DNA of 64,000 bases from Escherichia coli (GTDB lineage: Bacteria; Pseudomonadota; Gammaproteobacteria; Enterobacterales; Enterobacteriaceae), in assembly GCF_030013595.1 (NCBI RefSeq), contig NZ_CP122768.1; one strand, given 5' to 3'. The number at the start of each line of letters is the position of its first letter. The first letter of the stretch is position 1. Position numbers and translations under genes: made by a program. The notes beneath the pieces are model-generated. The model was not told the DNA's origin. It saw only the letters and a list, made by a program, of their open reading frames with translations, and did not search any database. Positions 1 through 22,887 of this stretch are shown here, piece after piece.

Positions 1-126
1 CAGCACACCTATTGCTGCCCACTGTGAGGGAGTGACTTTATCGAGCAGCTGTAAAAACCAGTAACCGGCACTACCTGCTGAGGTGCCATAGGCGACTCCA
101 GTTGTTAACTTATCCATGAATTTCAT
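1..126 (-). CDS. Phage holin (lambdoid S/EssD-like), N-terminal part only; ORF runs off window start
   Basis: Reverse-strand translation from ATG at 126: [42 protein letters not shown], holin-like; GAGGTG SD upstream. Confidence 0.6.
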
Positions 127-713
127 AACCCCACCTCGCAGACAAAGCGGGTGTAAATTGAGGGAATACAACGTATCGCAAAAAAGCAGAAACGTAACTG
201 ACTCCGAGTCAGTGAATAACTCAGGTATTGAGTTATCAGCTAATATCGAGACTCAAAAAATGGAAAAACCAGCTCGACGGCGGGTTTAAGCTGTGTGACG
301 AAGTAACCACTCTTAACAGCATAACCAATTTTTTACGTACGTAAACCACTGAATGATATTTATGAGAATGCTACCGAGTGTTCAAAACATCACCACAAAT
401 ACATAAGAAAACCTCAACAAATAACCAATAAATAATTTCCAGTGTTATTTTTAGCCGGTTTAAATTAAACAGACGAATTATAGAACCACCATAAATAACA
501 GCCATTAATATAAATTAGCTAATAGATTTATTTTTGTTCAAATAAGAGCCATAAATAGGTTTCGATAGAAAAAGTTCAGATAAAAATAGAGATCTACTTC
601 ACAAATTAAATGAGAAACTAAAACTTACATCTTGAAATAATCACATTGATTAGATGAATATTTATCGCGCAGTGACATCATTTTTTAATAATAGTTCAAA
701 AAAAGGGCTCACG

Positions 714-1811
714 ATGAAAAAATTAACAGTGGCAATTTCTGCTGTAGCTGCATCAGTACTGATGGCGATGTCTGCTCAGGCAGCTGAAATTTATAATAAA
801 GACAGTAACAAGCTGGATCTGTACGGGAAAGTTAATGCCAAGCACTACTTTTCCTCTAACGATGCAGATGATGGTGATACTACTTATGTTCGTCTGGGCT
901 TCAAAGGCGAAACCCAAATCAACGATCAGCTGACTGGTTTCGGTCAGTGGGAATATGAATTCAAAGGCAACCGCGCTGAATCTCAAGGTTCCTCCAAAGA
1001 CAAAACCCGTCTTGCATTTGCAGGCCTGAAATTCGGTGACTACGGCTCAATCGATTACGGCCGTAACTACGGTGTAGCATACGACATCGGTGCGTGGACT
1101 GACGTTCTGCCAGAATTCGGTGGCGATACCTGGACCCAAACAGATGTGTTCATGACTGGTCGCACCACTGGTGTTGCAACCTATCGTAACAACGACTTCT
1201 TTGGTCTGGTTGATGGTCTGAACTTTGCTGCTCAGTACCAAGGCAAAAACGATCGTAGCGATTTCGATAACTACACCGAAGGTAACGGTGATGGCTTCGG
1301 TTTCTCTGCTACCTATGAATACGAAGGATTCGGTATCGGTGCAACTTATGCGAAATCTGATCGTACCGACACTCAAGTTAATGCAGGGAAAGTTCTTCCT
1401 GAAGTATTTGCTTCCGGTAAAAATGCAGAAGTTTGGGCCGCAGGTCTGAAATATGACGCTAACAACATTTACCTGGCCACTACCTATTCTGAAACCCAGA
1501 ATATGACTGTATTTGCTGATCACTTCGTTGCTAATAAAGCTCAAAACTTCGAAGCTGTTGCACAATATCAGTTCGATTTCGGTCTGCGTCCGTCCGTTGC
1601 TTACCTGCAATCTAAAGGTAAGGATCTTGGAGTATGGGGCGATCAGGACTTAGTCAAATATGTTGATGTAGGTGCAACCTATTACTTCAACAAAAATATG
1701 TCTACTTTCGTTGATTACAAAATCAACCTGCTTGACAAAAATGACTTCACTAAAGCACTCGGTGTAAGCACTGATGACATCGTTGCTGTAGGTCTGGTTT
1801 ACCAGTTCTAA
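714..1811 (+). CDS. nmpC: Outer membrane porin NmpC (OmpD/OmpC family), prophage-encoded, intact 365 aa
   Basis: Signal peptide [23 protein letters not shown], porin motifs, C-terminal ...VGLVYQF; ORF track start at 654 is an upstream in-frame extension. Confidence 0.85.
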
Positions 1812-1948
1812 TCTGATTACGAAAAAGATATGTTGCGGGAGGCGTTGCCTCCCCAACATATAAGTGGCTCCCTCAAGCCACTTCCTTTAGGAGCACAACC
1901 TTGCTTCTAACTATATAAACCTTCTGTTATATATTACCCTTTATTTTT

Positions 1949-1973
1949 GGGGGCGTTGCAACGCCCCATTTTT
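1949..1973 (+). terminator. Rho-independent terminator downstream of nmpC
   Basis: Perfect hairpin ggggcgttgcaacgcccc followed by atttttaat. Confidence 0.55.
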
Positions 1974-2000
1974 AATAACTTTCAGTAAACAATTGGCATA

Positions 2001-2399
2001 TTAATTAGAGTTATTAACAACGATATCCATCTCTAACCGGATATCTAATGCCATTAACATCCCTTCAATTATGCCCTCAGCCTTCTGTAACCTTTTCCCG
2101 ATATAACCATCAGAGCAGCAATGCTTACCTGCCAGTGACATGAATGTCATACCGACTACATAATAATCTACTAATAAATCGTGCAAATCGCTGTTGTTCT
2201 TTTTCAGACGGGCCATGCACCCGCAAATAATCATCGCGTCATCGTCACAACATTGCGGGCGAGATTTTACTTTTGAAGGAATTAATCCCTTAAAACCGGC
2301 GGCAATGGACGACCAGGTCACATCTTCATGATTATTAGCCGCCCACGCTCCCCAACGTTCAAGAACCATCTGAATATCACGCATTAACTTTCTCCACAA
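2001..2399 (-). CDS. quuD: Late-gene antiterminator Q (QuuD-like)
   Basis: 132 aa; sequence matches my recall of DLP12 QuuD; sits directly upstream of the porin/lysis region as in K-12. Confidence 0.75.
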
Positions 2400-2401
2400 A
2401 A

Positions 2402-3397
2402 TCAGGCCAGCACACCAATCGCCAGTGCGCGATCGATAAAACGAAATATCAGCTCCAGCTGGGAGCCATACTTCTCTTCAAATGCCACGGTATCCGCATG
2501 CAGTTCGTCGTGGTGTTTTCTGCACAAAGGCAACACAAAAAGGTCATGCGCTTTTGTACCCATTCCACCCTGACCATGGCCTATCAGATGATGCGGATCA
2601 TCAGCTGGCTTTCCACAACATGCACACGGCTGTGTCTTAACCCAGCGCGTGTACTTTTCATTAACCCAGCGGCGACGTTTTGGGCGTAACATAAAAGACT
2701 CCGGCGACTCCGGATCCACTTTCAGCGCCAGCACCTTTTTCGCCTTATCCTGGATGATGCTGGTGGCAGGAACCGAAGGCACAAGGTCACTTTCCCGGGT
2801 AACAGACGGCACAACAGGCTTCGGTAATCTCAGTGCCTTACGGGCTGCACTTTCCGGTAAGGCATCCGCCAGATCATTACGAATCAGCCACCAGCACAGT
2901 TCCGGCATTGTCACAACGTGACTGTCATCAAAACCGAGATCCCGACGCACAACAGACAACACCCAGCGGGCACAGTTATCCGTTGCCATTGATTCCAGCC
3001 GTTCCGTGAACTGATCGCGCAGCTGGTTATCGCAGTGCCAGCACAGACGGATTGCACCCGGAGCGTGTCGCATTGTGGTCATGTTCTCGCTGTGCCAGTC
3101 GGAATGAGGCCACTGGCAGCCTTTTTCACGAAGTAACCAGCTTTCAAGACATTCCACGCCACCAGCACGACGGATCACTGCCTCATTGCGGAACACGGCC
3201 CGAACGGCAGGATCATCCGCCAGCGGTTGTGATGCCGCCGGAACGGCACCACTGGCGAAAGATGAATAACGCTCCGGCTCAGGCTCCAGCAGGACACGCC
3301 CCTGCATAAACAGGGGCATCAGCTCTGAACCTGGCCTGAACAATACGATCCCCATACGCGGGGCAATTTCAGGGGTCAGTAGTGCTCTCACGGTCAC
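2402..3397 (-). CDS. DUF968 family phage protein (YdfU-like) with C-terminal Cys/His HNH-like motif
   Basis: 331 aa; C-terminus CACCGKP...HHLIGHG...[10 protein letters not shown]; nin-region position. Confidence 0.55.
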
Positions 3398-3398
3398 C

Positions 3399-4241
3399 TC
3401 AATGAACGGTATCGAGCAGCTTTAACAGCTCAGGGAATCGGGATTCGAAGAAATGCGGCTGTGTCTCGCGCGGATTTGCGGGACTGGTGATGTTCTTGCC
3501 GAACATGCAACCTTTCGCTGTCAGCGACCAGAATTTTTTGATGTTGTTAATCGCTGTACGGCTGTATCGTTCGCGCTGCTCGACGATCCCCAGTTTCACC
3601 ATCTGGTGATATGCCTGATTAGCCGTCAGGCGTATACCATACTGTTTCAGCAGTGCACTCAGTGACAGTGTCGGGCGACTTGAGCCATCGTGTGCATCAG
3701 CAGGAGCATCAATGGCATAGCGCGGTGCCAGATTCGGTAAGCCAACAGCCTCCTGGAGTTTCTGACAGGCACCAAGCACTGAAGAGTTAGACAGGTTTAA
3801 CTCCCGGCGCATAAAGTCCAGCAGGATCACGCCAGCCTGCATCTTGTCAGCAGCCTGTCCGGATAATTTTTCCGGTGCGCTGGTTACCATATCGAAAGTA
3901 CGGATCACCTTCAGATGGAATGACGGGCTGATCCACATTGCATAGGCATACACCAGTTCCTTGCAGACATACGTTCCCCGTTCATTTCCCCCATGAATCA
4001 CACTCACCGGGTCAACACCCAAATTCTGGGTGTTGGTCAATTCATGAACAAGCTCAACAGTTTGTTGGCTGGAAAGAAACTTTCCCGGCTCCTTGGTTCT
4101 GGCATTTGCACCAGATGCTACTGCTGCGCGATGCAGATCGTTCAGGCTGTAACGCCCATAAGCATCACGACGAACTTCAATACCATCAATGACCATCAGA
4201 TTATTCATACTTCGTTTCTCCTCTTGATCAGGCGGCTGCAC
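3399..4241 (-). CDS. KilA-N domain protein / putative phage antirepressor
   Basis: 280 aa; N-terminal KilA-N-like segment MVIDGIEVRRDAYGRYSLNDLHRAA; start may be the internal Met at 4208. Confidence 0.5.
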   Translation of the reverse strand: MQPPDQEEKRSMNNLMVIDGIEVRRDAYGRYSLNDLHRAAVASGANARTKEPGKFLSSQQTVELVHELTNTQNLGVDPVSVIHGGNERGTYVCKELVYAYAMWISPSFHLKVIRTFDMVTSAPEKLSGQAADKMQAGVILLDFMRRELNLSNSSVLGACQKLQEAVGLPNLAPRYAIDAPADAHDGSSRPTLSLSALLKQYGIRLTANQAYHQMVKLGIVEQRERYSRTAINNIKKFWSLTAKGCMFGKNITSPANPRETQPHFFESRFPELLKLLDTVH

Positions 4242-4617
4242 CCGCCGTTTTCTCGTACTTACTGATAGTGATCTCGACCTTCCCTTTCGGGATAACCGGT
4301 CCCCACTCCACCAGCATTCTTTTCACCTGACTGTCGTCTTCCCACACACCCGCATGGGTCAGGGCGTCAAACAGCGCCTTGTTATAGTTGTCCAGATCGC
4401 GGATCCGGTTATCCGGAGGAAACAACACGATCTCCACTGAAGCAGGTGCCGACGTTGGTTTCGGCAGACGACGTAACTGCTCAACTATTGCTGCGCACGC
4501 CGCGCTCTGGAATTTGCGCCCCGCTGCGCTTATCAGACTCTTACCAGCAAACGCCCCTTTGTTGGGGTGTCGCCAGTACGTGTTCACGCTGGGCGGGAAA
4601 GGCAAGATCAGCTTCAT
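4228..4617 (-). CDS. rusA: Holliday junction resolvase RusA family
   Basis: 129 aa; ...RDLDNYNKALFDALTHAGVWEDDSQV... matches RusA catalytic-region pattern. Confidence 0.75.
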   Translation of the reverse strand: MKLILPFPPSVNTYWRHPNKGAFAGKSLISAAGRKFQSAACAAIVEQLRRLPKPTSAPASVEIVLFPPDNRIRDLDNYNKALFDALTHAGVWEDDSQVKRMLVEWGPVIPKGKVEITISKYEKTAGAAA

Positions 4618-4940
4618 ACTTTCAGGCCCCTCTCATGTAACCAGTGGGCTGCACGCAGCCTGGCGTTTTCCTCACCGGCAAGCAGTGCGCGGATAATCCC
4701 GACCGCCTCGCTGTCGTCGTCCTTCACCGCGGTATGAAGAGTTATCCCCCGGGCCACGCCACGCTTTATCGTGATGACGCCTTTTTTCTCCAGTGCGCGA
4801 AGATGCTCCACCGCTGCATTCACCGAACGGTATCCCAGCATGGTTGCCACCTCCTGATTGGTTGGCGGAAAGCCACGTTCTTGCTGGTAAGAAATCAGCA
4901 TATCCAGCACCTGCTGCTGGCATTGAGTTAACGTCGTCAT
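4614..4940 (-). CDS. LexA-type N-terminal DNA-binding domain protein, no peptidase domain
   Basis: 108 aa; LTQCQQQVLDMLISYQQERGFPPTNQEVATMLGYRSVNAAVEHLRALEKKGVI resembles the LexA winged-helix domain; 4-nt overlap with flanking genes. Confidence 0.5.
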   Translation of the reverse strand: MTTLTQCQQQVLDMLISYQQERGFPPTNQEVATMLGYRSVNAAVEHLRALEKKGVITIKRGVARGITLHTAVKDDDSEAVGIIRALLAGEENARLRAAHWLHERGLKV

Positions 4941-5590
4941 GCCGCCATCTCCCTGACCAGTTTTTCCGCCTGCTGGCGAACCTGCGCCAGAAAGGCCTCA
5001 CCACATGCCTCAAGTTCATCGCGCCCGATGTAGCTGATTGCCGGTCCCTTCCAGGTCTTGTCGAAAACAGCAATAGCACCAGCGAAGAAAGCGCCTGTCG
5101 GCACCTGCTTCTCGTCCTTCGGGATAAACCAGGCTGGCAGTTCAAAACCAATACGCCCGCGAATAAAAGCAATATGGTCTGCATCTTCCGGCCACCACAC
5201 TTCGCTGGTGGCAGCTTTGATCAGGAAAACATAGCGCCCGCCTTTATCACGCATGGCACTGGCATGCTTCATGATGTAACGCATGCCGGTGATGTATTGC
5301 CCCTCATGCTGACTGGCGCGGCTGTACGGGGGATTACCAAAGGCAGCACCTTTAAGCTCCGCAAGACGTTCTGACCAGTCATGCGCCAGCGCGTTGTCTT
5401 CCGCAGTGTAATACGCGGCGCATTTGGCGTTATCACCATCAGTAAACAGATCCAGAACAAACGGGCCAAACAGGGTGTTAATTCCCCAGAAAATGTTGTC
5501 CGGCGTGCGCCACTGATCGCCCACTTCCTTCAGTTCATGGGCTGGTTTGTTCCGCAGCTCCACCAGCGCCTGGCAATATTTATTACTCAT
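4937..5590 (-). CDS. Phage DNA N6-adenine methyltransferase (Dam-like)
   Basis: NPPY motif (GNPPYSR); start placed at Met giving TAATG coupling with the upstream gene; ORF track extends to 5623. Confidence 0.7.
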   Translation of the reverse strand: MSNKYCQALVELRNKPAHELKEVGDQWRTPDNIFWGINTLFGPFVLDLFTDGDNAKCAAYYTAEDNALAHDWSERLAELKGAAFGNPPYSRASQHEGQYITGMRYIMKHASAMRDKGGRYVFLIKAATSEVWWPEDADHIAFIRGRIGFELPAWFIPKDEKQVPTGAFFAGAIAVFDKTWKGPAISYIGRDELEACGEAFLAQVRQQAEKLVREMAA

Positions 5591-6084
5591 TAAGCCCCCA
5601 CGTAATTCCCTGACAGATACCACTCTTCACCCGATGCAGCGCGCTTGCTGCTTTTCCGTAAACACCGCTCACGACGCGCAAGAAAATTGTTTCGCTCTTG
5701 CTGGGAGTGGCTTTCACGGAATGCCGCCATCCACACCGTTGCAGCACGACGGTATAAGCCCCTGGACTCCAGTTCTTCCGCCTGGCGGGTCAGGCACAAA
5801 ATAACCCGGGGATCGTTAGTGCCGACATAGAAATTGCGCACAGGTCTGGATTCACGAACTGGTTGCGGTTCCGGCTCCTGCGGTATCTCAGTCAGCCGCG
5901 GGAAATGTCTGCGTGTATCCCCTTCACAACGGTGAGCCACACGCCCACTCTGACGTAACTTGCTTGCTGACTGCAGAACGCGCTGTCGTGAGTAACCTGC
6001 AAAAGCATCCGCAATGTCTCCGGAAGTACACCCCGGATGGGCTTCAATGAATTTCTGAACGTCATTCAAAAGACTCATGATCAC
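5590..6084 (-). CDS. Hypothetical phage protein in replication module
   Basis: 164 aa, translationally coupled to the replication gene upstream and the methyltransferase downstream. Confidence 0.45.
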   Translation of the reverse strand: MIMSLLNDVQKFIEAHPGCTSGDIADAFAGYSRQRVLQSASKLRQSGRVAHRCEGDTRRHFPRLTEIPQEPEPQPVRESRPVRNFYVGTNDPRVILCLTRQAEELESRGLYRRAATVWMAAFRESHSQQERNNFLARRERCLRKSSKRAASGEEWYLSGNYVGA

Positions 6085-7022
6085 CCCCTGAATCCTGCCG
6101 GGATCTGGCTGTAGTCCACGTTGTCGTAACTGGCTTTGAAGTACGGGTCTTCGCGTTTTTCGGTGTACGTGCTGACGGACGGCGATAAGCGCAGGGAAAG
6201 CTCATCCCATTTTTCCCGCAGCTTCGACGGGCTGAGCACGTTACGGCACCAGAACGGATCGCGACTGACGCGGCTGTACATCTCGCAGATTTGTTTATGA
6301 GTACGACCATCCTGCACACACATCAGGCGAATTTCGTTTGCCCAGGCTGTCCAGTTCGGTTCTTTGGGACGAACCACCTCGCCGTCACATTCGGCGGCAT
6401 GCTCGTACAGGGCGATGATTTTTTTCCAGAGCCACTGTGCGCAGGTCAAATCATCCTGCGTCCCCCACTGGCGCTTTTTAGGGCTGAATACAACCGCATC
6501 AGGATGGCGAGTTAAAAAATCCTGTTCAGCCGTCTGCGTGTCCGGTTGCGAAGAGTCCGGACGAGAAGGTTTTTTATCTGACGGATCATGTTTTGATTTT
6601 ACTGACGGATCCCCGCCAGATTCTGACGGGTGAAAACCCGCTTTTTTGCCAGATTTCGACGCATCAAATTTTGACGGGTCAGATTTTGATGCGTCAGATT
6701 TTGACGGGTCAGAATCTGACAGTTGAGAAAATGCCGCTGCCTGAAGCTTCGCAACGTTAAGCTGATAAACATTCGACGCATTGCGGTTACCCTGGCGACG
6801 CGCCTTACGCGTTAACCAGCCTTCTGCTTCCAGCCGTGCGATAGCCGTTCTGACGGTACTCATCCCCGCGCCAATCTGGCGGGCAATGGTTTCAATCGAT
6901 GGCCAGCACACACCTTCGTCATTACTGAAATCAGCCAGGCGGGCCATAATTGCCACGCTGGATAATTTCATGCCTGACGCTGCGCAACCATCCCATACAT
7001 AGCCGGTTAATTTAGTGCTCAT
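6081..7022 (-). CDS. Putative phage replication initiation protein (N-terminal wHTH, O-like role)
   Basis: 313 aa; HTH segment CWPSIETIARQIGAGMSTVRTAIARLEAEGWL; repetitive SDPSKSDASK linker encoded by internal iterons. Confidence 0.55.
   Translation of the reverse strand: MSTKLTGYVWDGCAASGMKLSSVAIMARLADFSNDEGVCWPSIETIARQIGAGMSTVRTAIARLEAEGWLTRKARRQGNRNASNVYQLNVAKLQAAAFSQLSDSDPSKSDASKSDPSKFDASKSGKKAGFHPSESGGDPSVKSKHDPSDKKPSRPDSSQPDTQTAEQDFLTRHPDAVVFSPKKRQWGTQDDLTCAQWLWKKIIALYEHAAECDGEVVRPKEPNWTAWANEIRLMCVQDGRTHKQICEMYSRVSRDPFWCRNVLSPSKLREKWDELSLRLSPSVSTYTEKREDPYFKASYDNVDYSQIPAGFRG
6575..6730. repeat. Iteron array (putative prophage ori) inside the replication gene
   Basis: About 8 tandem copies of a TGACGG(A/G)TC-like unit (tctgacggatc, actgacggatc, tctgacgggtg, ttgacgggtc x2, ttgatgcgtc) followed by an A/T-rich stretch. 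Confidence 0.55.
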
Positions 7023-7031
7023 GACCGACCT

Positions 7032-7370
7032 CTATTTCCCTGAATTTACGACGAAACTGTTCGAGCGGACTGAAGCACTCATGCTCATAGCCTTCGCGGA
7101 GGTAGATAACCCGTTGTGTTTCCGGTTCCCAACGAATGACTCTGACGGGCACTCCGTAGTGATCTTTGAACCAGCGGTTAACTTGTCGCAAAGGACTGTC
7201 TCCTTCTGCCGGTTGAAATCCCCCACAGCCCACTCTGCAAAGCTGTGGGTTACAATTTCCCTGTCACCTGGTACATTCACTGCATAGCAATATTCCACCT
7301 TCGCTTTTCCACCCGGTACAGGAAGCGCAATCAGTTGCGAGCGACGGTAGTGTGTTGTTAAACTGTTCAT
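7032..7370 (-). CDS. YmfM-like e14-type phage protein
   Basis: 112 aa; 4-nt overlap with the upstream CII-like gene; C-terminal half overlaps an alternative-frame ORF (7012..7233). Confidence 0.45.
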
Positions 7371-7936
7371 GCGTTAGTTTCTCCACAACCAGAAGCAATC
7401 GACGCCACGACGCCCGGAGCTGCACACTCGCGGGCGTCATTACTTTCTGAAATGCAAAAGATTTTGTAGACCAGTGCTGCATGCTCCTGCAGCTTCGAAA
7501 TTGAGAGATACAGCTCGTCGTTAATTGCTGTCTTCTCATGCGGTTCCACTACACCGTCTTCGATTGCTGAACGAATCTGTTTTGAATAACTGCCGATCTG
7601 TTCAATGACTTCCAGCAGACGCTGGTTAATATCGGCGTTGTCCACATCCTCGACGTCAGGAAGCGACACAAAGACGCCATTTGCAGACTGCGCCACAGCA
7701 TCAGCAATGAAGTGAGTGCCACCAGCACGCTGTAAAACCATTGCCCATCCCAGCGGGAAAATCTGATCGCCATCTGCACGAAGGCGGTTGAATAAAGCGT
7801 TTTCTGTTACATCGAGCCAGTCAGCCGCTTCAGCGTAACCACCCGGCAACGCCGCGATAGTTTTTCTGACAGCTTTCACGTACCACTCAGGCTGTTTTTC
7901 TATTTTCCAGTGATGCTTACCCACGATTAGCCTCAT
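7367..7936 (-). CDS. YmfL-like / CII-type phage regulatory protein
   Basis: 189 aa, directly downstream of cro in the rightward operon. Confidence 0.55.
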
Positions 7937-7967
7937 CGTTCTGTGGTTAAAAATTGAAAGTGTTCTG

Positions 7968-8168
7968 CTAATCTTTCGGATAGATATCCGGTCTTAAGTC
8001 AGATTTCGTAATTGCACCTGACGTGCATTGCTCAAGTTTTTTAGCCAGCACAAAACTGGCTTTTTTATAGCCATTGAAAACCAGCCGTAAGTAGCCAGGA
8101 GTTGAGCCAACTTTTCCGGCCAACTCGCCCTGCTGTTCTTTGGTTAAAGAGTCCCAATACGCTTTCAT
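7968..8168 (-). CDS. Cro-like repressor
   Basis: 66 aa MKAYWDSLTKEQQGELAGKVGSTPGYLRLVFNGYKKASF... with HTH; GGAG SD; divergent from cI; ORF track's 167 aa is an upstream extension. Confidence 0.65.
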   Translation of the reverse strand: MKAYWDSLTKEQQGELAGKVGSTPGYLRLVFNGYKKASFVLAKKLEQCTSGAITKSDLRPDIYPKD

Positions 8169-8222
8169 ACAATATGTACCTCCGGTGTACATATTACATG
8201 ATTGAAATGAACCTTCAAGACA

Positions 8223-8243
8223 CTTGTACCTTAACGGTACAAG
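8223..8243. promoter_or_regulatory. Putative OR operator palindrome between cro and cI
   Basis: cttgtacc-ttaa-cggtacaag inverted repeat; further TGTAC half-sites at 8175 and 8186. Confidence 0.45.
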
Positions 8244-8258
8244 GGTTTTAATTTCGTT

Positions 8259-8933
8259 ATGAAAACAATCCATGACATCCGGCGGTCTAACGCCCGAAAA
8301 CTGAGAGATGGTGTTGGAGGGAATTCTTCCTTTGCCACTATGATTGATCGCGAGCCAACCCAGACCAGCAGGTTTATGGGAGATGGTGCTACTAAAAATA
8401 TCGGTGACAGCATGGCACGACACATCGAAAAATGTTTCGACCTGCCTGTCGGATGGCTCGATCAAGAACACCAGACAACGAACATCACAAAAAAACCTGA
8501 TGTTTCAATCACTAATAAACAAATCACATTAGTCCCTGTCATATCATGGGTACAGGCCGGAGCATGGAAAGAAGTTGGATATTCTGAGGTTGATTTGAGC
8601 ACAGCAGAAACGTATCCCTGCCCTGTACCCTGTGGGGAAATGACTTATATCTTGCGGGTGATAGGTGATTCAATGATTGATGAGTACCGCCCGGGAGACA
8701 TGATTTTTGTCGATCCTGAAGTACCTGCCTGCCACGGTGACGACGTTATTGCATTGATGCACGATACAGGTGAAACCACCTTCAAAAGGTTGATAGAAGA
8801 TGGGACACAGCGTTATCTCAAAGCGTTAAACCCAAACTGGCCTGAGCCTTACATTAAGATCAACGGTAATTGCTCTATAATTGGAACTGTGATTTTCTCA
8901 GGAAAACCAAGAAGATACAAAATCAAAGCCTAA
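8259..8933 (+). CDS. CI-like prophage repressor (HTH plus S24 LexA-like peptidase), CohE-like
   Basis: 224 aa; C-terminal S24 region ...VIGDSMIDEYRPGDMIFVDPEV...; divergent from cro. Confidence 0.8.
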   Translation: MKTIHDIRRSNARKLRDGVGGNSSFATMIDREPTQTSRFMGDGATKNIGDSMARHIEKCFDLPVGWLDQEHQTTNITKKPDVSITNKQITLVPVISWVQAGAWKEVGYSEVDLSTAETYPCPVPCGEMTYILRVIGDSMIDEYRPGDMIFVDPEVPACHGDDVIALMHDTGETTFKRLIEDGTQRYLKALNPNWPEPYIKINGNCSIIGTVIFSGKPRRYKIKA

Positions 8934-8946
8934 TCAATGTTTATGA

Positions 8947-8968
8947 ACCTGCTTCGGCAGGTTTTTTT
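8947..8968 (+). terminator. Rho-independent terminator after the cI-like gene
   Basis: acctgc-ttcg-gcaggt hairpin followed by tttttt. Confidence 0.6.
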
Positions 8969-8972
8969 ATAC

Positions 8973-9000
8973 TTGACAATGTACCCACGAGATACATAAT
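8973..9000 (+). promoter_or_regulatory. Putative pL-like sigma70 promoter with operator repeats
   Basis: TTGACA (8973-8978), 16-bp spacer, CATAAT (8995-9000); direct repeats atgtacccacgaga / atgtacccaagaga share the TGTACC operator half-site. Confidence 0.45.
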
Positions 9001-9081
9001 GTACCCAAGAGAAACAACAAACAGGCAGGACGCCCACGAAGTAGCCGCCTGGGGCATATGAAGTCCAGGATGATTCGTTAG

Positions 9082-9110
9082 CAACAAAAAAGCGCCCTAC
9101 AGGACGCTTA
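9082..9110 (-). terminator. Rho-independent terminator for the minus-strand moron
   Basis: On the minus strand: agcgtcc-tgta-gggcgct hairpin followed by tttttgttg, 38 nt past the stop at 9148. Confidence 0.45.
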
Positions 9111-9147
9111 GCTCTTTAACAATCTGGATATCCACAACAGTAGTAAT

Positions 9148-9639
9148 CTACAGATTGCCGTTAAGTTTTCTGGACAACTCCTCAATGGATGGAGGCGATA
9201 CGTAATCCGGATTTTTATTCATCAGAAACTTATTTTCACAGTGGAGGCACCTGCTTTTATGAAAAAGCTCATCTTCGCTAACCGGGAATGGTTGAAGTAT
9301 CGATACTATCTTTTGTCCAAAACATTTTGGGCAAAGATGCATGGTTATGCTGCCACCGTTCACGATTACCTCCTTCGAGTATACAAAAGTACCCGACTCA
9401 AGTTGGTTAAGGATATAGCCTTCCGTCTGAGCCTCAAAGTTTTCGAATTCTGCAATTTTAGCTTTGAGAGAAGCATTTATTTCTTGATAAGAGCCCACCA
9501 GTTCAACGAGAGACACGCATTCGCGCTGAATAGACGCAAGCTTTGAGTTCAGCTCACCAATAGCCGCATTTACTTCAGCTTGAGTTTTTGCCTCGTTCAT
9601 TAGTTTTGCAATCTGGGCTGTTTCACGAATAGCCGTCAT
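9148..9639 (-). CDS. Hypothetical coiled-coil / C4 zinc-ribbon protein (moron between cI and early-left operon)
   Basis: 163 aa from Met at 9639; N-terminal coiled-coil-like region, C-terminal CPKC...(26)...CLHC; opposite to pL transcription; AT-rich; ORF track extends implausibly to 9927. Confidence 0.5.
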   Translation of the reverse strand: MTAIRETAQIAKLMNEAKTQAEVNAAIGELNSKLASIQRECVSLVELVGSYQEINASLKAKIAEFENFEAQTEGYILNQLESGTFVYSKEVIVNGGSITMHLCPKCFGQKIVSILQPFPVSEDELFHKSRCLHCENKFLMNKNPDYVSPPSIEELSRKLNGNL

Positions 9640-9949
9640 TGCTGCCGTTAATTCAGCGATCACATTGAATACTCTTATTGTTGTTGGGGATATCCAGATT
9701 AACCGAATCCTTGTTGTTGGGGAATAACCAGGTCCACCTCGCCTGATGTGGCTAAAAGCAGGCACATAACAGCTAAGTATTTTCAACCAGAGAGAATCCT
9801 TAGCGTTGTGGTGAATGCGGCTCAGCGCACGCGGGTTAAGGTTGAGGCTGACAGTCGACCTTCTGTGGATACCCACCCGCCTGGTGTGCAACCTTCGCCA
9901 GGCACCGGGAGGCACCCGGCACCACAACTTTATGCTGTGTGTAGTCCTG

Positions 9950-9996
9950 GCGGTACCAGTTTGTACCCTTGCTTCCGGCTGGTACCGTCCTTTTTT
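9950..9996 (+). terminator. Rho-independent terminator in GC-rich non-coding region
   Basis: cggtaccag ... ctggtaccg 9-bp stem followed by tcctttttt. Confidence 0.5.
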
Positions 9997-9997
9997 G

Positions 9998-10084
9998 CAA
10001 AACAGAGAAGAGCATCACCGGACGACGGGCTCATAACCCAATCCATCCGGGCGGCTGCCACCGCAGGTGTTCTTCTCTGTTTTG
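9998..10084. repeat. Long imperfect inverted repeat / RNA stem
   Basis: caaaacagagaagagca and tgttcttctctgttttg (17 bp, one mismatch) flanking ~53 bp of GC-rich sequence. Confidence 0.4.
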
Positions 10085-10133
10085 TGGAGAAACCAACCGA
10101 CCTTGCAGGGTCGATATGATGAGGAGCAGCAAA

Positions 10134-10496
10134 ATGGCTAGCGAACGCAGTACTGATGTGCAGGCATTTATCGGGGAGCTGGACGGCGGCGTATTTGAAA
10201 CCAAAATCGGCGCAGTTCTCAGTGAGGTCGCTTCCGGTGTGATGAACACGAAAACCAAAGGGAAGGTCTCACTCAATCTGGAAATCGAACCGTTTGATGA
10301 GAACCGTGTGAAAATCAAACACAAACTCTCATATGTTCGCCCAACTAACCGCGGGAAAATTTCCGAAGAAGACACCACCGAAACGCCGATGTATGTCAAT
10401 CGCGGTGGTCGCCTGACTATTCTGCAGGAAGACCAGGGACAATTACTGACTCTTGCCGGTGAACCTGACGGAAAACTCCGCGCAGCAGGTCGTTAA
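10134..10496 (+). CDS. YfdP-like prophage protein
   Basis: 120 aa; GAGGAG SD 7 nt upstream of ATG; first gene of the early-left operon, gene order as in CPS-53 yfdPQRST. Confidence 0.6.
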   Translation: MASERSTDVQAFIGELDGGVFETKIGAVLSEVASGVMNTKTKGKVSLNLEIEPFDENRVKIKHKLSYVRPTNRGKISEEDTTETPMYVNRGGRLTILQEDQGQLLTLAGEPDGKLRAAGR

Positions 10497-10561
10497 TATC
10501 GTTCGTAATAAACTGATTATTTATCTCATCACTGAATATCTTTATATAGTGAGGACTTATT

Positions 10562-11386
10562 ATGTCTCAGAACTTAGACGCAACCGCAATTAATCAAATC
10601 CATGCCCTTATTTCTGCTCAGAGTGTTAATGAAATTATCAGTAAGATTGGTGCCGATGCTGTGGCATTGCCTGAGAATTTCCGCATTCATGATCTGGAAA
10701 AATTTAATTTAAATCGCTTCCGTTTCCGTGGTGCACTTTCCACTGCCAGCATCGATGATTTTACCCGTTATTCTAAAGATCTTGCAGATGAAGGCACCCG
10801 CTGCTTTATCGATGCCGATAATATGCGTGCCGTCAGTGTGCTTAACCTGGGTACTATTGATGAGCCAGGTCACGCAGATAACACTGCCACTCTCAAACTG
10901 AAAAAGACAGCACCGTTCTCTGCTCTGTTGTCTGTTAACGGCGAGCGTAACTCCCAGAAGTCACTGGCAGAATGGATCGAAGACTGGGCCGACTACCTTG
11001 TGGGCTTTGATGCTAATGGTGACGCCATTCAAGCAACAAAAGCGGCTGCGGCAGTCCGTAAAATCACGATTGAAGCAAACCATACCGCTGATTTTGAAGA
11101 TAATGACTTCAGCGGCAAACGCTCCCTGATGGAGTCTGTCGAAGCGAAGACCAAAGACATTATGCCAGTGGCATTTGAATTTAAATGCGTTCCGTTTGAA
11201 GGTCTGAAAGAACGTCCGTTTAAATTACGCCTCAGCATTATCACTGGCGATCGTCCTGTACTGGTTCTGCGCATTATTCAGCTGGAAGCGGTGCAGGAAG
11301 AAATGGCTAACGAATTTCGTGATCTGCTTGTTGAGAAATTCAAAGACAGCAAAGTAGAAACCTTTATTGGTACTTTCACCGCCTGA
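10562..11386 (+). CDS. yfdQ: YfdQ family protein (DUF2303)
   Basis: 274 aa, same length and position as CPS-53 YfdQ; TGAGGA SD. Confidence 0.7.
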
Positions 11387-11397
11387 TTTCATTACTG

Positions 11398-11420
11398 CAA
11401 ATGCCCCTGCGGGGGCATTT
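11398..11420 (+). terminator. Stable stem-loop between yfdQ and yfdR (possible attenuator)
   Basis: aatgcccc-tgcg-ggggcatt perfect 8-bp stem; weak T tract. Confidence 0.35.
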
Positions 11421-11513
11421 ATGGAAACGTAATTAACTCAATAATCACCGGATGGTGAGGGCTTCCTTTTACCAGAATTCAGCGCGGTGCAGTGCATATA
11501 CGTGGAGAACAAA

Positions 11514-12050
11514 ATGTCATTTATTAAAACTTTTTCCGGGAAGCATTTTTATTATGACAAGATAAATAAAGACGACATCGATATTAACGATATCGCGGTT
11601 TCCCTTTCAAATATCTGTCGCTTTGCCGGTCATCTTTCGCACTTCTACAGCGTCGCCCAACATGCGGTTCTTTGCAGCCAGCTGGTGCCGCAGGAATTTG
11701 CTTTTGAAGCGTTAATGCATGATGCAACAGAAGCGTATTGCCAGGACATTCCCGCACCACTGAAACGCCTTCTTCCTGACTATAAACGGATGGAAGAAAA
11801 AATAGACGCCGTAATCCGTGAGAAATACGGGTTACCCCCAGTTATGAGTACACCCGTGAAATATGCCGATCTCATCATGCTGGCAACCGAACGCCGCGAT
11901 CTCGGGCTTGATGATGGCTCTTTCTGGCCTGTACTGGAAGGCATCCCGGCAACAGAGATGTTCAACGTGATTCCACTGGCACCGGGTCATGCCTACGGGA
12001 TGTTTATGGAACGTTTTAACGATTTATCGGAGTTACGCAAATGCGCATGA
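11514..12050 (+). CDS. yfdR: HD-domain 5'-deoxynucleotidase YfdR-like
   Basis: 178 aa from MSFIKTF; HD-family residues (...QHAVLCSQ..., ...HDATEAY...); ORF track start at 11487 is an upstream extension. Confidence 0.7.
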   Translation: MSFIKTFSGKHFYYDKINKDDIDINDIAVSLSNICRFAGHLSHFYSVAQHAVLCSQLVPQEFAFEALMHDATEAYCQDIPAPLKRLLPDYKRMEEKIDAVIREKYGLPPVMSTPVKYADLIMLATERRDLGLDDGSFWPVLEGIPATEMFNVIPLAPGHAYGMFMERFNDLSELRKCA

Positions 12051-12403
12051 ATGTTTTCGAAATGGAAGGGTTTCTTCGCGGGAAATGTGTACCGCGAGAT
12101 CTGAAAGTGAACGAAACAAATGCTGAGTACCTGTTACGTAAATTCGACGCGCTTGAAGCTAAATGTGCGGCACTGGAAAACAAAATAATACCAGTGTCAG
12201 CTGAACTGCCACCAGCAAATGAAAGTGTTCTGTTATTTGATGCTAACGGAGAAGGCTGGCTGATTGGCTGGCGTTCTCTCTGGTACACCTGGGGACAAAA
12301 AGAAACCGGAGAATGGCAGTGGACATTTCAGGTCGGGGACCTTGAAAACGTCAATATCACTCACTGGGCAGTAATGCCAAAAGCACCGGAGGCTGGAGCA
12401 TAA
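12041..12403 (+). CDS. yfdS: YfdS-like prophage protein (DUF551)
   Basis: 120 aa, follows yfdR as in CPS-53. Confidence 0.65.
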   Translation: MRMNVFEMEGFLRGKCVPRDLKVNETNAEYLLRKFDALEAKCAALENKIIPVSAELPPANESVLLFDANGEGWLIGWRSLWYTWGQKETGEWQWTFQVGDLENVNITHWAVMPKAPEAGA

Positions 12404-12708
12404 TGACCACATTTACCAATAAAGAACTGATTAAAGAAATCAAAGAACGAATCAGCAGCCTAGAGGTTCGAGACGATATTGAGCGCCGTGCTTATGAAAT
12501 CGCACTCGTATCTCTGGAAGTAGAGCCAGATGAACGCGAAGCCTATGAATTATTCATGGAAAAGCGTTTCGGTGACTTAGTAGATCGTCGGAGAGTAAAA
12601 AACGGCGATAACGAATACATGGCATGGGATATGACTCTCGGTTGGATCGTCTGGCAGCAACGAGCTGGTATCCATTTTTCAACAATGACACAGCAAGAGG
12701 TGAAATAA
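12403..12708 (+). CDS. yfdT: YfdT-like prophage protein
   Basis: 101 aa, coupled to yfdS (ATGA-type overlap). Confidence 0.65.
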   Translation: MTTFTNKELIKEIKERISSLEVRDDIERRAYEIALVSLEVEPDEREAYELFMEKRFGDLVDRRRVKNGDNEYMAWDMTLGWIVWQQRAGIHFSTMTQQEVK

Positions 12709-13079
12709 TGGAGCCATACAGCCTCACACTCGATGAGGCCTGTCAGTTTCTTAAGATATCCAGACCAACCGCCACCAACTGGATACGAACAGGCCGCCTA
12801 CAGGCAACACGTAAAGATCCAACCAAGCCAAAATCTCCTTACCTCACAACACGGCAAGCTTGCATTGCGGCGCTTCAGTCTCCGCTGCATACTGTCCAGG
12901 TGAGCGCGGGTGATGGCATAACAGAGGAAAGAAAATGTCACTCTTCCGCAGAAATGAAATATGGTATGCCTCGTATTCGCTCCCGGGCGGGAAACGAATT
13001 AAGGAATCTCTTGGCACAAAGGACAAGCGGCAAGCTCAGGAGTTGCACGACAAGCGAAAAGCAGAACTCTGGCGAGTAG
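12708..13079 (+). CDS. Putative excisionase (AlpA/Xis-like HTH); 3' end uncertain, frame overlaps int
   Basis: Starts TAATG-coupled to yfdT; N-terminal HTH-like segment [28 protein letters not shown]; frame stays open to 13079. Confidence 0.45.
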
Positions 13080-14098
13080 AAAAGCTAGGGGATTTACCTG
13101 ATGTCACTTTTGAAGAGGCCTGCCTAAGATGGCTTGAGGAAAAAGCTGATAAAAAATCTCTCGATTCAGATAAAAGCCGGATTGAGTTCTGGCTTGAACA
13201 TTTTGAGGGTATAAGGCTTAAAGATATCTCGGAGGCAAAGATTTACTCTGCTGTAAGCAGAATGCATAACAGAAAGACGAAAGAAATATGGAAACAGAAA
13301 GTTCAGGCCGCCATCAGGAAAGGTAAAGAACCGCCTGTTTATGAACCAAAGCCAGTATCAACTCAGACAAAGGCAAAGCATCTTGCCATGATAAAGGCCA
13401 TTCTCCGTGCTGCAGAACGCGACTGGAAGTGGCTGGAAAAAGCGCCTGTCATCAAGATACCAGCGGTCAGAAACAAGCGAGTCAGATGGCTGGAAAAGGA
13501 GGAAGCAAAACGCCTTATTGATGAGTGCCCCGAACCACTGAAATCTGTCGTCAAGTTTGCGCTGGCAACTGGTCTGAGAAAGTCGAACATCATAAATCTG
13601 GAATGGCAACAAATCGACATGCAGCGACGAGTTGCCTGGGTGAATCCAGAAGAGAGCAAATCAAACCGCGCCATTGGTGTGGCGCTGAACGATACCGCCT
13701 GTAAAGTGTTGCGTGATCAAATAGGCAAGCATCACAAATGGGTGTTTGTACATACCAAGGCGGCTAAGCGAGCAGATGGAACATCAACGCCTGCGGTCAG
13801 GAAGATGCGCATCGACAGCAAGACATCATGGCTATCAGCTTGTCGTCGTGCAGGAATTGAAGATTTCCGTTTCCATGACCTCAGACACACCTGGGCAAGC
13901 TGGCTGATCCAGTCAGGCGTCCCATTATCTGTGCTTCAGGAAATGGGCGGATGGGAGTCCATAGAAATGGTTCGTAGGTATGCTCACCTTGCGCCTAATC
14001 ATTTGACAGAGCATGCAAGGAAAATAGACGACATTTTTGGTGATAATGTCCCAAATATGTCCCACTGTGGAATTATGGAGGATATAAAGAAGGCGTAA
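12935..14098 (+). CDS. intD: Tyrosine integrase (IntD-like), adjacent to argU
   Basis: 387 aa; C-terminal catalytic region ...[17 protein letters not shown]...VRRYAHL; ends 16 bp from the tRNA 3' end. Confidence 0.85.
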
Positions 14099-14113
14099 CT
14101 GATTGAATTGTAA

Positions 14114-14190
14114 TGGCGCGCCCTGCAGGATTCGAACCTGCGGCCCACGACTTAGAAGGTCGTTGCTCTATCCAACTGAGCTAAGGGCGC
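14114..14190 (-). tRNA. argU: tRNA-Arg (anticodon UCU), argU
   Basis: Reverse complement GCGCCCTTAGCTCAGTTGGATAGAGCAACGACCTTCTAAGTCGTGGGCCGCAGGTTCGAATCCTGCAGGGCGCGCCA, 77 nt, cloverleaf-compatible. Confidence 0.95.
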
Positions 14191-14432
14191 GTTGATACCG
14201 CAATGCGGTGTAATCGCGTGAATTATACGGTCAACCCTTGCTGAGTCAATGGCTTTTGATCTGGTTGCTGAACAAGTGAACGACCGCGTCTGATTTTCTG
14301 ATTTATTTCGCTATAGCGGCAAACAAACGTACATCGCTGCGCGTCTGAATCAAGAAAACTCGTATTTTCATGTATCAAAGTACAATTTCCCGCCCTAACG
14401 GAAAATTGTCCGATCCAATGAGACTGGTAACT

Positions 14433-16613: not shown

Positions 16614-19223
16614 TTATGAGCCAGAATGTGTGCAAACTGCCGAAATAACAGTGACGGCTTGCTGTAAGCTTTGCTTCGGCAATACATAGTGCGCAATGCA
16701 GCGTGAGTTCGCGCCGTCTCCCCACTGAACCAGTAATTCACCAGACAATGGCGCACCACTTAAATAAACTTGCCCGTCATCACCCACCATACTGGTTATT
16801 CCGGTACTGTTTTCCCGTACCAGTGATCCAAACGGCACCGGTTTTCCGCCCTGGGTAACGGTAATGAGCGCCCGCACGCCTATGCGGGTATCAAAATTGG
16901 CACGAACCAACGCGCCTTGCGTCGGCACAACACTGCTAATATTTTTTTCAACATCGATGGAATTCCCCATCGTATTGGTATCAAGCGCGATACGGTTATA
17001 CCGATAAACCGTGGCATACGGCATCACCGCATAGCCGCGCCAGTCGGTTAAAATGCCAGTTTGATTTTCAATGCGTACACCGCCTGCGCCAGGCGCTTTA
17101 ATCAAAACATTGGTATCCCCTAAAGGCTGGCTCAGCGTTATGCCATTTTCATGTCCGACCACACCGCCAGACAGCTGCCAGTTAACGTCATGTTGATCGC
17201 GGTCGTAGTTATACCCGACCCCCAGCGTACCGTAAGCGGCCTGCCAGTTTGCCGTAGCGCTGCCCGTATACCCATTATTCGAGGTATCGCCCTGGCTTAC
17301 GTGATAACTCAGGTTGTGGCCTTCCAGTAAGGTCCCACCTACACCTGCCAGCCAGCTATTTTGCCCGTTGCTGTTACGGTTGGCGTTAAAGGAGGCATAA
17401 GCGCGGTCGAGCGCATTTTCCCGGGTGTAGCGACGTTTGGTCAAAACATTGAAAGGCACTGAAACATTAAGTCCGACAATACGTTCGTTATCGGGGATCC
17501 CTACAGATTCATTCCACGAAAATGAGAGCGAATAACTGATGCCAACCCAGCTGCTGGTATACCCCACCTGATACCACGTATCTGAATCCGAAGTATTCCA
17601 GTATTTTTGATGGGTACCAGAAATATAAAGCGAGCCAAAGTCATTAAGTGATTGTGAAATATTTAACTGCAAACGGTCTTTACGGCTAAAGCGTAAATTG
17701 TGGTAATTCACGATTATCGGTTCATCGCGATACTCACCGTCATAATCGTAATCATATTCGTACCCCTCCATACGACGATACGCAACATCATCAAGGGTAT
17801 AAAAACCTTGTGTCGAATAGCGGTAACCCATTAACTGAAAATTGGTGCCGAAAGTGTTCATTGATTTCGCATAGAGGAAGCGAATAGAATCCCCCTCATG
17901 ACGACTATCGTCGGCTAACTGACTGCGCGCATGGGTCACATCCAGAGATACCGCCCCCCAGTTTCCGAGATTGCGCCCCAGCCCTAATAAAAAGGCGGTG
18001 TAATTGGCAGATAATTGCGTCCCGCCGTAGGCAGTAAATTCCTGTGGTAAACCGCCGAGTGCCGTGCCCTGAAAAAAGAAAGGTGATGATTGCTGACTAT
18101 TACCGCTACGAAAATCGCCCGCCGTCAGGTCAAATTTGAAACGCCCTTCGCGTTGTAAAATTGGCACTGTTGAATACGGAATCGTGTAATTCTGCTGATT
18201 GCCATCGCGCTCGTCGATGGTGACATCCAGATCGCCATTTGAAGATGTCGGGTGCAAATCTGTAATTTCAAAAGCGCCGGGGGAAACATAGCTTTGATAG
18301 ATAATAAAACCATTTTGCCGAATCGTTAGCTGGGCCGCCGTACGGGCAATCCCACGTACCGTTGGGGCAAACCCTTGCTGGCTATCAGGATACATATTAT
18401 CGGAAGAATAAAGCCGTACACCTCGAAATCCGACGCCATCGAAAATATCACTCCCTGTATTACCGTCTCCCATTACCAGTTCACTTTTCAGCGGAATAAT
18501 GGCGCGCTGTACCCAGGTGCCAATATTATTCCACTGTTCTGAATGATATCCATTTCCGCGAAAATAGTTCCAGGAACCATTGTTGCGTAAACGCCACGGG
18601 CCAATATTAATCCCGCTGAGTTCACTAAAAAAATAGCTATCGTTACCATTACCTCTGTTACCGGTGAAATTATAGTTCAGGAGTAAAGCAGGAATACCTT
18701 CATCCCACTCTTCAGGCGGAATGTAACCGTGAGCGCTACTCAACAACGCTATCTGAGGAATAGTGATGTTCAGGCGCATCGCTGCAAAATCAAAGTTAAT
18801 TGTGGCATCAGGTACAGCTTTCAGTAAATTGATGCATTTATTATTTTGCTGCTGGGCTAACTCAGGGAATGCACTGCTATTAAGGCCAATTCGTTCAAGG
18901 AGTGCCTGGTTAAAACAAGGCATTAACCCACCTGATTTATCACCTGTATTTACTGTCGTCGATTCAAATACGATATCCTGTGAACCAATGAACTCATCAT
19001 TACGCCAGAGATCCACCCGATACACGCCCGCAGGTTGATGATTACCTCTCTCAAAGCGCGATAAATCAGCAACGGATGTGCCATTCTCTAATAAAAATGC
19101 CGGGTTGAAATAACTTTCCGCATAGCTTAAAAAGGAGGGTAAAATGGCAAGAGATGAATAACAAATTCCGGCCAGACACCAGGTATACCTCTGCGGAATA
19201 TCCGTAGTAGTGGGTATTTTCAT
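16614..19223 (-). CDS. sfmD: Fimbrial usher SfmD
   Basis: 869 aa usher family outer membrane protein. Confidence 0.9.
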
Positions 19224-22365: not shown

Positions 22366-22887
22366 ATGCCAACCGTTATTACGCACGCCGCCGTTCCCCT
22401 TTGCATTGGTTTAGGGTTGGGTTCGAAAGTCATCCCTCCGCGCCTGTTATTTGCCGGAATCATCCTGGCGATGCTGCCCGATGCCGACGTCTTGTCGTTT
22501 AAATTTGGCGTTGCTTACGGCAATGTTTTTGGTCATCGCGGGTTTACCCATTCGCTGGTGTTTGCGTTTGTTGTCCCGCTGTTATGTGTGCTGATTGGAC
22601 GTCGATGGTTCAGGGCTGGGCTGATTCGCTGCTGGCTGTTTTTAACCGTCTCGTTGTTATCGCACAGCTTGCTGGATTCGGTAACCACTGGCGGTAAAGG
22701 GGTTGGCTGGCTGTGGCCGTGGTCAGATGAACGCTTTTTCGCTCCCTGGCAGGTGATTAAAGTCGCGCCGTTTGCATTGTCTCGTTACAGCACACCGTAC
22801 GGGCATCAGGTGATAATTTCTGAATTGATGTGGGTGTGGTTGCCGGGGATGCTACTGATAGGAATGTTGTGGTGGCTCAGACGATAA
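22366..22887 (+). CDS. ybcI: Inner membrane protein YbcI (DUF457)
   Basis: 173 aa multi-pass membrane protein. Confidence 0.85.
   Translation: MPTVITHAAVPLCIGLGLGSKVIPPRLLFAGIILAMLPDADVLSFKFGVAYGNVFGHRGFTHSLVFAFVVPLLCVLIGRRWFRAGLIRCWLFLTVSLLSHSLLDSVTTGGKGVGWLWPWSDERFFAPWQVIKVAPFALSRYSTPYGHQVIISELMWVWLPGMLLIGMLWWLRR

Follow-up and report, generated by a model that had tools for sequence, protein, structure and literature searches.

At its junction with the argU tRNA gene on the Escherichia coli chromosome (contig NZ_CP122768.1; the 64,000 nucleotides analysed are referred to as the window), what appears to be a lambdoid prophage carries an excisionase reading frame that continues far into the integrase gene. 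Is this long frame a regular gene of its family or, as the preliminary description of the locus had proposed, an unusual C-terminal extension or a decayed stop codon? The evidence assembled below leads us to conclude, with a probability of roughly 0.9, that a lambdoid prophage of the DLP12 type, with an intact P22-family int-xis module, is seen here at its attL end in argU. The argU locus is recognized by the flanking fimZ and sfm genes, and the features concerned are:

12403..12708, + strand: yfdT, the last early-left-operon gene ahead of xis (PGAP name: protein YfdT)
12708..13079, + strand: xis, P22-type excisionase (putative recombination directionality factor), 123 aa and a TAG stop
12708..12887, + strand: xis codons 1-60, predicted winged-helix DNA-binding domain of the excisionase/MerR-like type
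12935..13079, + strand: dual-coding stretch of 145 nt, xis codons 76-123 and int codons 1-49
12935..14098, + strand: int, intD-type tyrosine integrase, 387 aa
14046..14064, + strand: tandem ATGTCCCA motifs, candidate arm-type Int binding sites in the int-proximal att arm
14112..14158, no strand assigned: att identity block (attL copy), 47 bp, AATGGCGCGCCCTGCAGGATTCGAACCTGCGGCCCACGACTTAGAAG
14114..14190, - strand: argU, tRNA-Arg(UCU), intact (ARAGORN: tRNA-Arg(tct))
14152..14158, no strand assigned: argU anticodon loop, reading CUUCUAA in the tRNA direction, at the margin of the 47-bp block
14222..14249, - strand: promoter-like site upstream of argU (TTGACT, 16 nt spacer, TATAAT; 11/12 matches to the consensus)

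The outline of the gene arrangement given in the preliminary description is borne out by these coordinates. The coupling of the excisionase gene to yfdT through TAATG is present at 12706-12710, where the yfdT stop TAA (12706-12708) and the xis ATG (12708-12710) have one base in common, as do stop and start at the yfdS/yfdT junction, and a GAGGTG ribosome-binding site lies 8 nt 5' of xis. The open frame of 124 codons consists of 123 sense codons and the stop; the integrase start is overlapped by 145 nt, int being read in the +2 frame relative to xis, and the integrase ends close to argU, its stop separated by 15 nt from the 3' end of the tRNA, the only one that ARAGORN reports within the window. 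A search of the + strand for a sigma-70 promoter of xis or int found none; the only promoter seen is that of argU on the minus strand, which is host DNA beyond the prophage. The integrase itself appears intact, judged from its translation, in which the catalytic motifs LRKSN, HDLRH and RRYAHL with R, HxxR and Y are seen, and from a match to Phage_integrase (PF00589) over profile positions 1-171 of 172, the complete catalytic domain (E=5.5e-47). PGAP names it intD, PHROG 10426 and PHROG 1 are matched, and its portion within the dual-coding stretch is the N-terminal arm-binding region with an SLGT.D motif.

The identification of the overlapping gene as an excisionase gene holds over its full length. 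In a tblastn search against 50,697 phage records, P22 Xis was matched with about 75% identity over residues 1-122 of 123 (E=7e-53); 162 records were matched altogether, 161 with at least 80% query cover. The alignment to the PHROG 2907 'excisionase' profile runs through its whole length (positions 2-117 of 117, E=1.1e-45), and the sequenced phages PhiR49_1, PhiR29_1 and 2G7b possess a Xis that is 99-100% identical; a literature search for a paper on the PhiR49/PhiR29 phages found none. The label 'AlpA-like', on the other hand, proved imprecise: the product is a helix-turn-helix protein, with HTH_17 (PF12728) on residues 6-36 (E=1.2e-8) and HTH_23 and HTH_29 as further Pfam hits, but Phage_AlpA (PF05930) has no Pfam match at E<=0.1. 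The NCBIfam model TIGR01764 'excise' reaches 27.7 bits, slightly below its cut-off of 28.8.

The structural prediction divides the protein into two parts. In the AF2 model, which was built on a 59-sequence alignment of Xis and 58 homologues, residues 1-60 form a helix-turn-helix, a wing and a third helix at pLDDT 82-94, while residues 61-123 have a pLDDT of 42-68 with one predicted helix at 88-103. The top-ranking folds in the PDB are those of mycobacteriophage Pukovnik Xis (4j2n), BldC and P2 Cox, all of them small winged-helix proteins of the excisionase type, with target-normalised TM-scores of 0.53-0.81 at E-values of only about 0.02; a PDB sequence search with Xis gave nothing significant (best E=0.07). 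The xis product is a full-length homologue of P22 Xis with an N-terminal winged-helix domain and a long flexible tail. By analogy with P22, whose purified Xis reportedly binds and bends attP, the 123-aa protein would act as a directionality factor that binds and bends an att arm and takes part in excision.

The long reading frame recurs throughout the family. At nine homologous loci including the window, xis is open into int at +2 in 9/9 and the overlap is exactly 124 or 145 nt. The P22 RefSeq record lists a xis of 351 nt (116 aa) with a 124-nt overlap, APSE-7 combines a 145-nt overlap with a tRNA-Arg attP, and HK446 and ENT47670 show the same xis-int layout with genes annotated as excisionase. 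A protein search returned 113 Xis homologues, the complete ones of which belong to a class of either 115-116 aa (P22, E. coli thrW prophages, Enterobacter, Edwardsiella, Yersinia, Xenorhabdus, Erwinia, Pantoea) or 122-123 aa (Salmonella, Citrobacter, Cronobacter, Atlantibacter, Pantoea, Serratia, Rahnella); the 122-123 aa form ending in N.GE is also found in Proteus and in the APSE phages of aphid symbionts. The homologues extend over at least 10 genera with conserved stop positions. A close representative of the shorter class is the thrW prophage of E. coli TUM1226, which has a PGAP-annotated 116-aa Xis homologue and is 89% identical to the window at the DNA level over yfdT, xis and the start of int.

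The alignment with the 58 homologues shows how the two classes are related. Both have the C-terminal block L..LL.QRT.GK.RSCTT, which the longer class continues with seven extra residues up to the terminal N.GE. The short class has CTA (Leu) as Int codon 41 and the long class CGA (Arg), read in the xis frame as TAA and GAA respectively, the next xis-frame stop in the long class being the TAG that spans Int codons 48-49; whether the protein has 123 or 116 aa is therefore due to a single nucleotide in int codon 41. That the length class follows the target tRNA was considered and rejected, as tRNA-Arg(UCU) is used by both lengths, namely by the window, 2G7b, APSE-7 and Proteus V3 (122-123 aa) and by HK639 (111 aa); the target of EPP-1 (115 aa) is another tRNA, and POCJ13 (123 aa) differs in its flank.

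On the basis of these comparisons, a long xis that runs into int is the normal, ancestral layout of the P22 family, and the 123-aa form is an old and widespread variant rather than a strain artefact or the outcome of recent stop decay. The alternatives of an unusual C-terminal extension and a decayed stop, posed at the outset, both give way to homologues of 115-116 or 122-123 aa with conserved stops. The yardstick behind them, a typical Xis of about 70 aa, is true of lambda Xis and AlpA, but P22 Xis has 116 aa. Homologues with an early stop, which had been named as the sign of a strain or sequencing artefact, were looked for, and none was present among the full-length homologues examined; nor did the homologue searches find any homologue of about 70 aa.

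Whether the overlap is itself under selection is a question of its own. When Int codons 1-49 of the window are recoded synonymously, the xis frame is open in about 30-38% of the trials, and the openness of the frame in a single sequence was therefore rejected as evidence, a P of about 0.3-0.4 being too weak; since the open frame of the window alone is not significant, its meaning comes from the comparison with homologues. The probability of an open frame under synonymous recoding is 0.14-0.53 per lineage, and multiplication over seven divergent lineages gives about 1e-4 for a frame open in all of them. To multiply the lineages is reasonable because the synonymous sites of int outside the overlap are near saturation, with 0.57-0.68 of the identical-residue codons in the rest of int differing synonymously between lineages. 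In int codons 2-41 the synonymous difference is typically 0.38-0.47 and lies below that of the rest of int in nearly all 36 pairs. Together, the open frames and the depressed synonymous change point to a dual-coding constraint, without being decisive. A function of the Xis tail is not proven thereby, because the conservation of the tail is confounded with that of the Int N-terminus: 11 conserved residues of the Xis tail share bases with 11 residues of a widely conserved Int motif.

Against this background three other readings of the gene can be weighed. A decayed stop, a pseudogene or a strain or sequencing artefact derived from an original gene of about 70 aa would agree with the PGAP annotation, which comprises codons 1-22 only as 'incomplete, missing C-terminus', and with the GAA found here at the place of the P22 TAA at codon 117. 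Yet the same 372-nt ORF occurs with 99-100% identity in many independent genomes and isolated phages, the 122-123 aa class with its N.GE end reaches into distant genera at 45-83% identity, and even the shorter class, in a family in which no homologue of about 70 aa turned up, retains 115-116 aa and a 124-nt overlap, which makes decay scarcely credible. Only a little less improbable is a role in transcription, with the protein activating int in the AlpA manner known from CP4-57 instead of serving as a directionality factor at att. A small helix-turn-helix protein encoded directly upstream of a tRNA-targeting integrase would suit such a role, as would the relatedness of the HTH_17 and Phage_AlpA folds, but the unmatched Phage_AlpA profile, the full-length homology to a P22 protein annotated as excisionase and said to bind and bend attP, and an int that overlaps xis and is probably co-transcribed with it, with no intervening promoter region, all argue for the excisionase.

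The third reading accepts the excisionase but holds that only the N-terminal 60-75 aa or so matter and that the 48-codon tail is functionless, tolerated read-through of Int sequence, which would stay free of stops merely because the Int N-terminus has, by accident, few codon pairs prone to give a stop in the xis frame. The chance of an open frame is, after all, 0.38-0.53 in the window and P22 types, the conserved tail residues overlie the Int SLGT.D motif, AF2 confidence is low beyond the N-terminal domain, and the stop has shifted by seven codons with no sign of harm. These points are countered by a frame that is open at 9/9 loci, even in HK446, HK639 and Proteus V3 where the chance is 0.14-0.21, by the lowered synonymous divergence of int within the overlap and by the finding that no full-length homologue stops soon past the DNA-binding domain. 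Lambda Xis contacts Int through its C-terminal tail, an analogy that likewise speaks for a tail with a role, and we consider functionless read-through unlikely. At the other extreme, and by the same analogy, one may speculate that the overlap encodes a Xis tail and an Int arm-binding domain that contact each other and is thus more than mere compaction, a doubtful proposition for which we would give modest odds at best. If it were true, mosaic recombination could not split a cognate Xis-Int pair and the contact surfaces would have to co-evolve. The mosaic joints with other argU prophages, which lie exactly at 12708, the start of xis, and beyond att, but never between xis and int, fit such an inseparable pair without proving it.

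The preferred reading, an intact int-xis module at the attL end of a prophage in argU, can be followed further at the attachment site. The att core had been expected at the 3' end of argU, and a 47-bp block is indeed located there at 14112-14158, with counterparts in related genomes: comprising argU nt 33-77 (the 3' 45 nt) and 2 nt beyond the tRNA, it is identical in attL, attR, attB and attP. As to the anticipated duplication of the argU 3' segment, no second copy exists inside the window, where a 38-nt probe allowing at most 3 mismatches detects a single copy only, but NZ_CP027342 has it, as an exact 47-bp direct repeat located between envY and ompT at a distance of 47,496 bp. The prophage DNA of this genome is 99.87% identical to window positions 1-14243, and judged from it the far end of the prophage is situated about 33 kb ahead of window position 1. 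To read the window's own attR, a fully identical genome was sought, but the best match is only 99.6% over 16 kb.

The remaining partners of the recombination are likewise represented. Strain AR_0374 has an empty attB with envY directly next to argU, and in empty-site genomes homology to the window starts only at 14112; phage 2G7b has the same 47 bp as its attP between int and ompT. In the four-way alignment of the att sites, the flanks exchange cleanly around the 47-bp block. For DLP12, a review (PMC6379469) reports an argU-like repeat of 47 bp at the distal end of the prophage. Within the block, attention falls on the anticodon loop at 14152-14158, which is flanked by the inverted repeat ACGAC/GTCGT of the anticodon stem. 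The identity stops at the 5' edge of this loop (tRNA nt 33), and the same loop-edge boundary is found for P22/thrW and for the tRNA-Arg-type cores of APSE-7, Proteus V3 and HK639. The anticodon loop is the probable region of strand exchange.

The arms of the attachment site can be compared in the same manner. The ATGTCCCA motifs at 14046-14053 and 14057-14064 are direct repeats, 11 bp apart, in the last codons of int; the tandem is invariant between the argU phage and P22 attP, the other att arm of P22 repeats the motif, and the position of the tandem is kept in 11 loci. With the divergent integrases of HK446 and HK639 the motif becomes GGCACA/GACACA at the same position, as expected of arm-type Int sites when the integrase is distant, and the ATGTCCCA pair is thus a candidate for such sites. 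The int-distal arm, at attR and outside the window, contains three TTGCAAA-like repeats phased at 10 bp, which in phage 2G7b (about 4015-4060 of L011) read CATGTAAAGC, CTTGCAAGCC and ATTGTGAGGC; these phased repeats are the probable Xis sites.

From these elements a sequence of events can be proposed, largely in analogy to lambda and P22. As yfdS, yfdT and xis are joined by one-base junctions and the search of the + strand gave no sigma-70-like site, yfdQ, yfdR, yfdS, yfdT, xis and int would be expressed from one transcript by read-through of the early-left operon, with xis translation coupled to that of yfdT. Int would then occupy core sites round the anticodon stem-loop together with the ATGTCCCA arm sites, and strands would be exchanged inside the 47-bp argU identity, in the anticodon loop. 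Xis bound to the phased repeats of the int-distal arm would bend the DNA and recruit Int, and excision by attL x attR recombination would thereby be favoured.

The closest known system is P22 (NC_002371; xis P22gp24, int P22gp23), with the about 75% identical Xis already described, the same domain order, a 387-aa Int as in the window and a xis that enters int with the same frame offset. Homology extends to the att arms, with the tandem ATGTCCCA in the int 3' end and TTTTAAGTCAACAAC beside the core. The two systems differ in Xis length (116 versus 123 aa), overlap (124 versus 145 nt), int codon 41 (CTA versus CGA), target (thrW versus argU) and upstream neighbour (eaC versus yfdT). The cryptic DLP12 prophage of K-12 resembles the window in its argU site, an int that is 99.5% identical, the same 47-bp repeat and ompT inside the element. 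In K-12, however, xis codons 1-44 are gone (homology resumes from window position 12840), as is most of the early region, and the proposed alignment with xisD is uninformative because K-12 retains no more than the 3' two thirds of this gene. The xis of the window, in contrast, is complete, and the near-identical genome NZ_CP027342 harbours a full-length prophage of about 47.5 kb.

The relationship to other excisionases is more remote. Lambda also has a small basic winged-helix factor whose gene directly precedes and overlaps int, as well as arm-type and core-type sites, and may serve as an analogue, but lambda Xis is without detectable sequence similarity to the Xis of the window and, in contrast to lambda, the att site of the window is inside a tRNA gene. 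Lambda Xis has 72 aa, and its gene overlaps int by about 20 nt. The AlpA (Phage_AlpA, PF05930) and TorI-type proteins are likewise small helix-turn-helix proteins associated with tRNA-targeting integrases and have a related winged-helix fold, but with about 60-70 aa they lack the long tail and the long int overlap of the window Xis.

Descriptions of the module, of its homology to P22 int-xis and of the 47-bp argU repeat in DLP12 go back to 1989. What the window presents is a module already known from DLP12 and P22, namely the DLP12 int-xis in undecayed form, and the finding carries little scientific weight; its practical point concerns annotation. In genomes with identical xis DNA, PGAP calls a pseudogene of 22 codons, which we read as an annotation artefact, and several phage records omit xis. 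Because of the pseudogene call in RefSeq and the omission in phage records, surveys of excision competence that count annotated xis genes would misclassify argU prophages. Of 5426 complete E. coli genomes, 2129 have the xis ORF at 80% or more of its length; about 40% of them thus carry the intact excisionase gene.

The junction between the xis-int-att module and the DNA upstream of it is sharply placed, with a mosaic joint that coincides exactly with the xis start codon at window position 12708. The module itself is 99% identical in other argU prophages (O26 RM10386 and phage 2G7b), where DUF4222/TraR/exo/bet genes lie upstream of xis and replace yfdQ-yfdR-yfdS-yfdT. A thrW prophage in strain TUM1226 has the yfdQRST genes in common with the window, its xis is 89% identical and the body of its int differs. 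In the DLP12 prophage of K-12, xis is reduced to its 3' 240 nt, with homology from window position 12840 onward; as codons 1-44 are absent, the remnant lacks the helix-turn-helix. It is joined to remnants of an exonuclease and of replication protein P, with an IS3 insertion close by.

The PGAP/RefSeq pseudogene call at 12708-12773 ('helix-turn-helix domain-containing protein, missing C-terminus') covers just codons 1-22 of the intact 123-codon gene, a call that applies to the same DNA in NZ_CP027342, NZ_CP083263 and NZ_CP028126, and xis is left without annotation in the phage records PhiR49_1, 2G7b, POCJ13, EPP-1, Proteus V3 and HK639. The cause of this mis- or non-annotation is probably the long out-of-frame overlap with int. 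Among the database protein matches, gene calls of 206-212 aa (P0001, P0003-P0008) fuse Xis either to a DUF4222 domain lying upstream of it or to a resolvase-domain (PF00239) protein, and probably represent frameshifts or start-codon artefacts from other prophage contexts.

At the other end of int, its final codons contain a tandem motif with 11-bp spacing (window 14046-14064), the position of which is kept family-wide (homologous loci L007, L009 and L015-L018), while its sequence varies with integrase type, being GTCCCA in most loci and GGCACA or GACACA in HK446 and HK639.

At the prophage porin gene position, annotated 'porin' in NZ_CP027342, the window holds an intact 385-codon open reading frame (654-1811), which we take to be nmpC, a gene disrupted in K-12. 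In the near-identical prophage of NZ_CP027342, two genes outside the window carry defect labels, the tail gene being marked as frameshifted and gpG as having an internal stop:

NZ_CP027342 (L006) 17716-18458 and 22458-22880, C40 peptidase tail gene and gpG

The internal-stop call in gpG may reflect a programmed G/GT frameshift and not decay.

In the 42.7-kb record pF138-4 (NZ_OY754386.1), labelled a 'plasmid', the chromosomal genes nfrA-ybcH-envY are followed by the 47-bp att block and, beyond it, by ompT-appY. Such an order is that of an attR-type junction, and the record could be a wrongly assigned contig or a piece of the chromosome that has been mobilised. Within the prophage, ompT adjoins the int-distal att arm, in regions outside the window:

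NZ_CP027342 (L006) 2324-3746, ompT/int-distal att arm region
Phage 2G7b (L011) 3891-5327, ompT/int-distal att arm region

The outer-membrane protease is thus phage cargo at the argU prophage locus, its gene sitting within the prophage and being found in the genome of the sequenced phage 2G7b.
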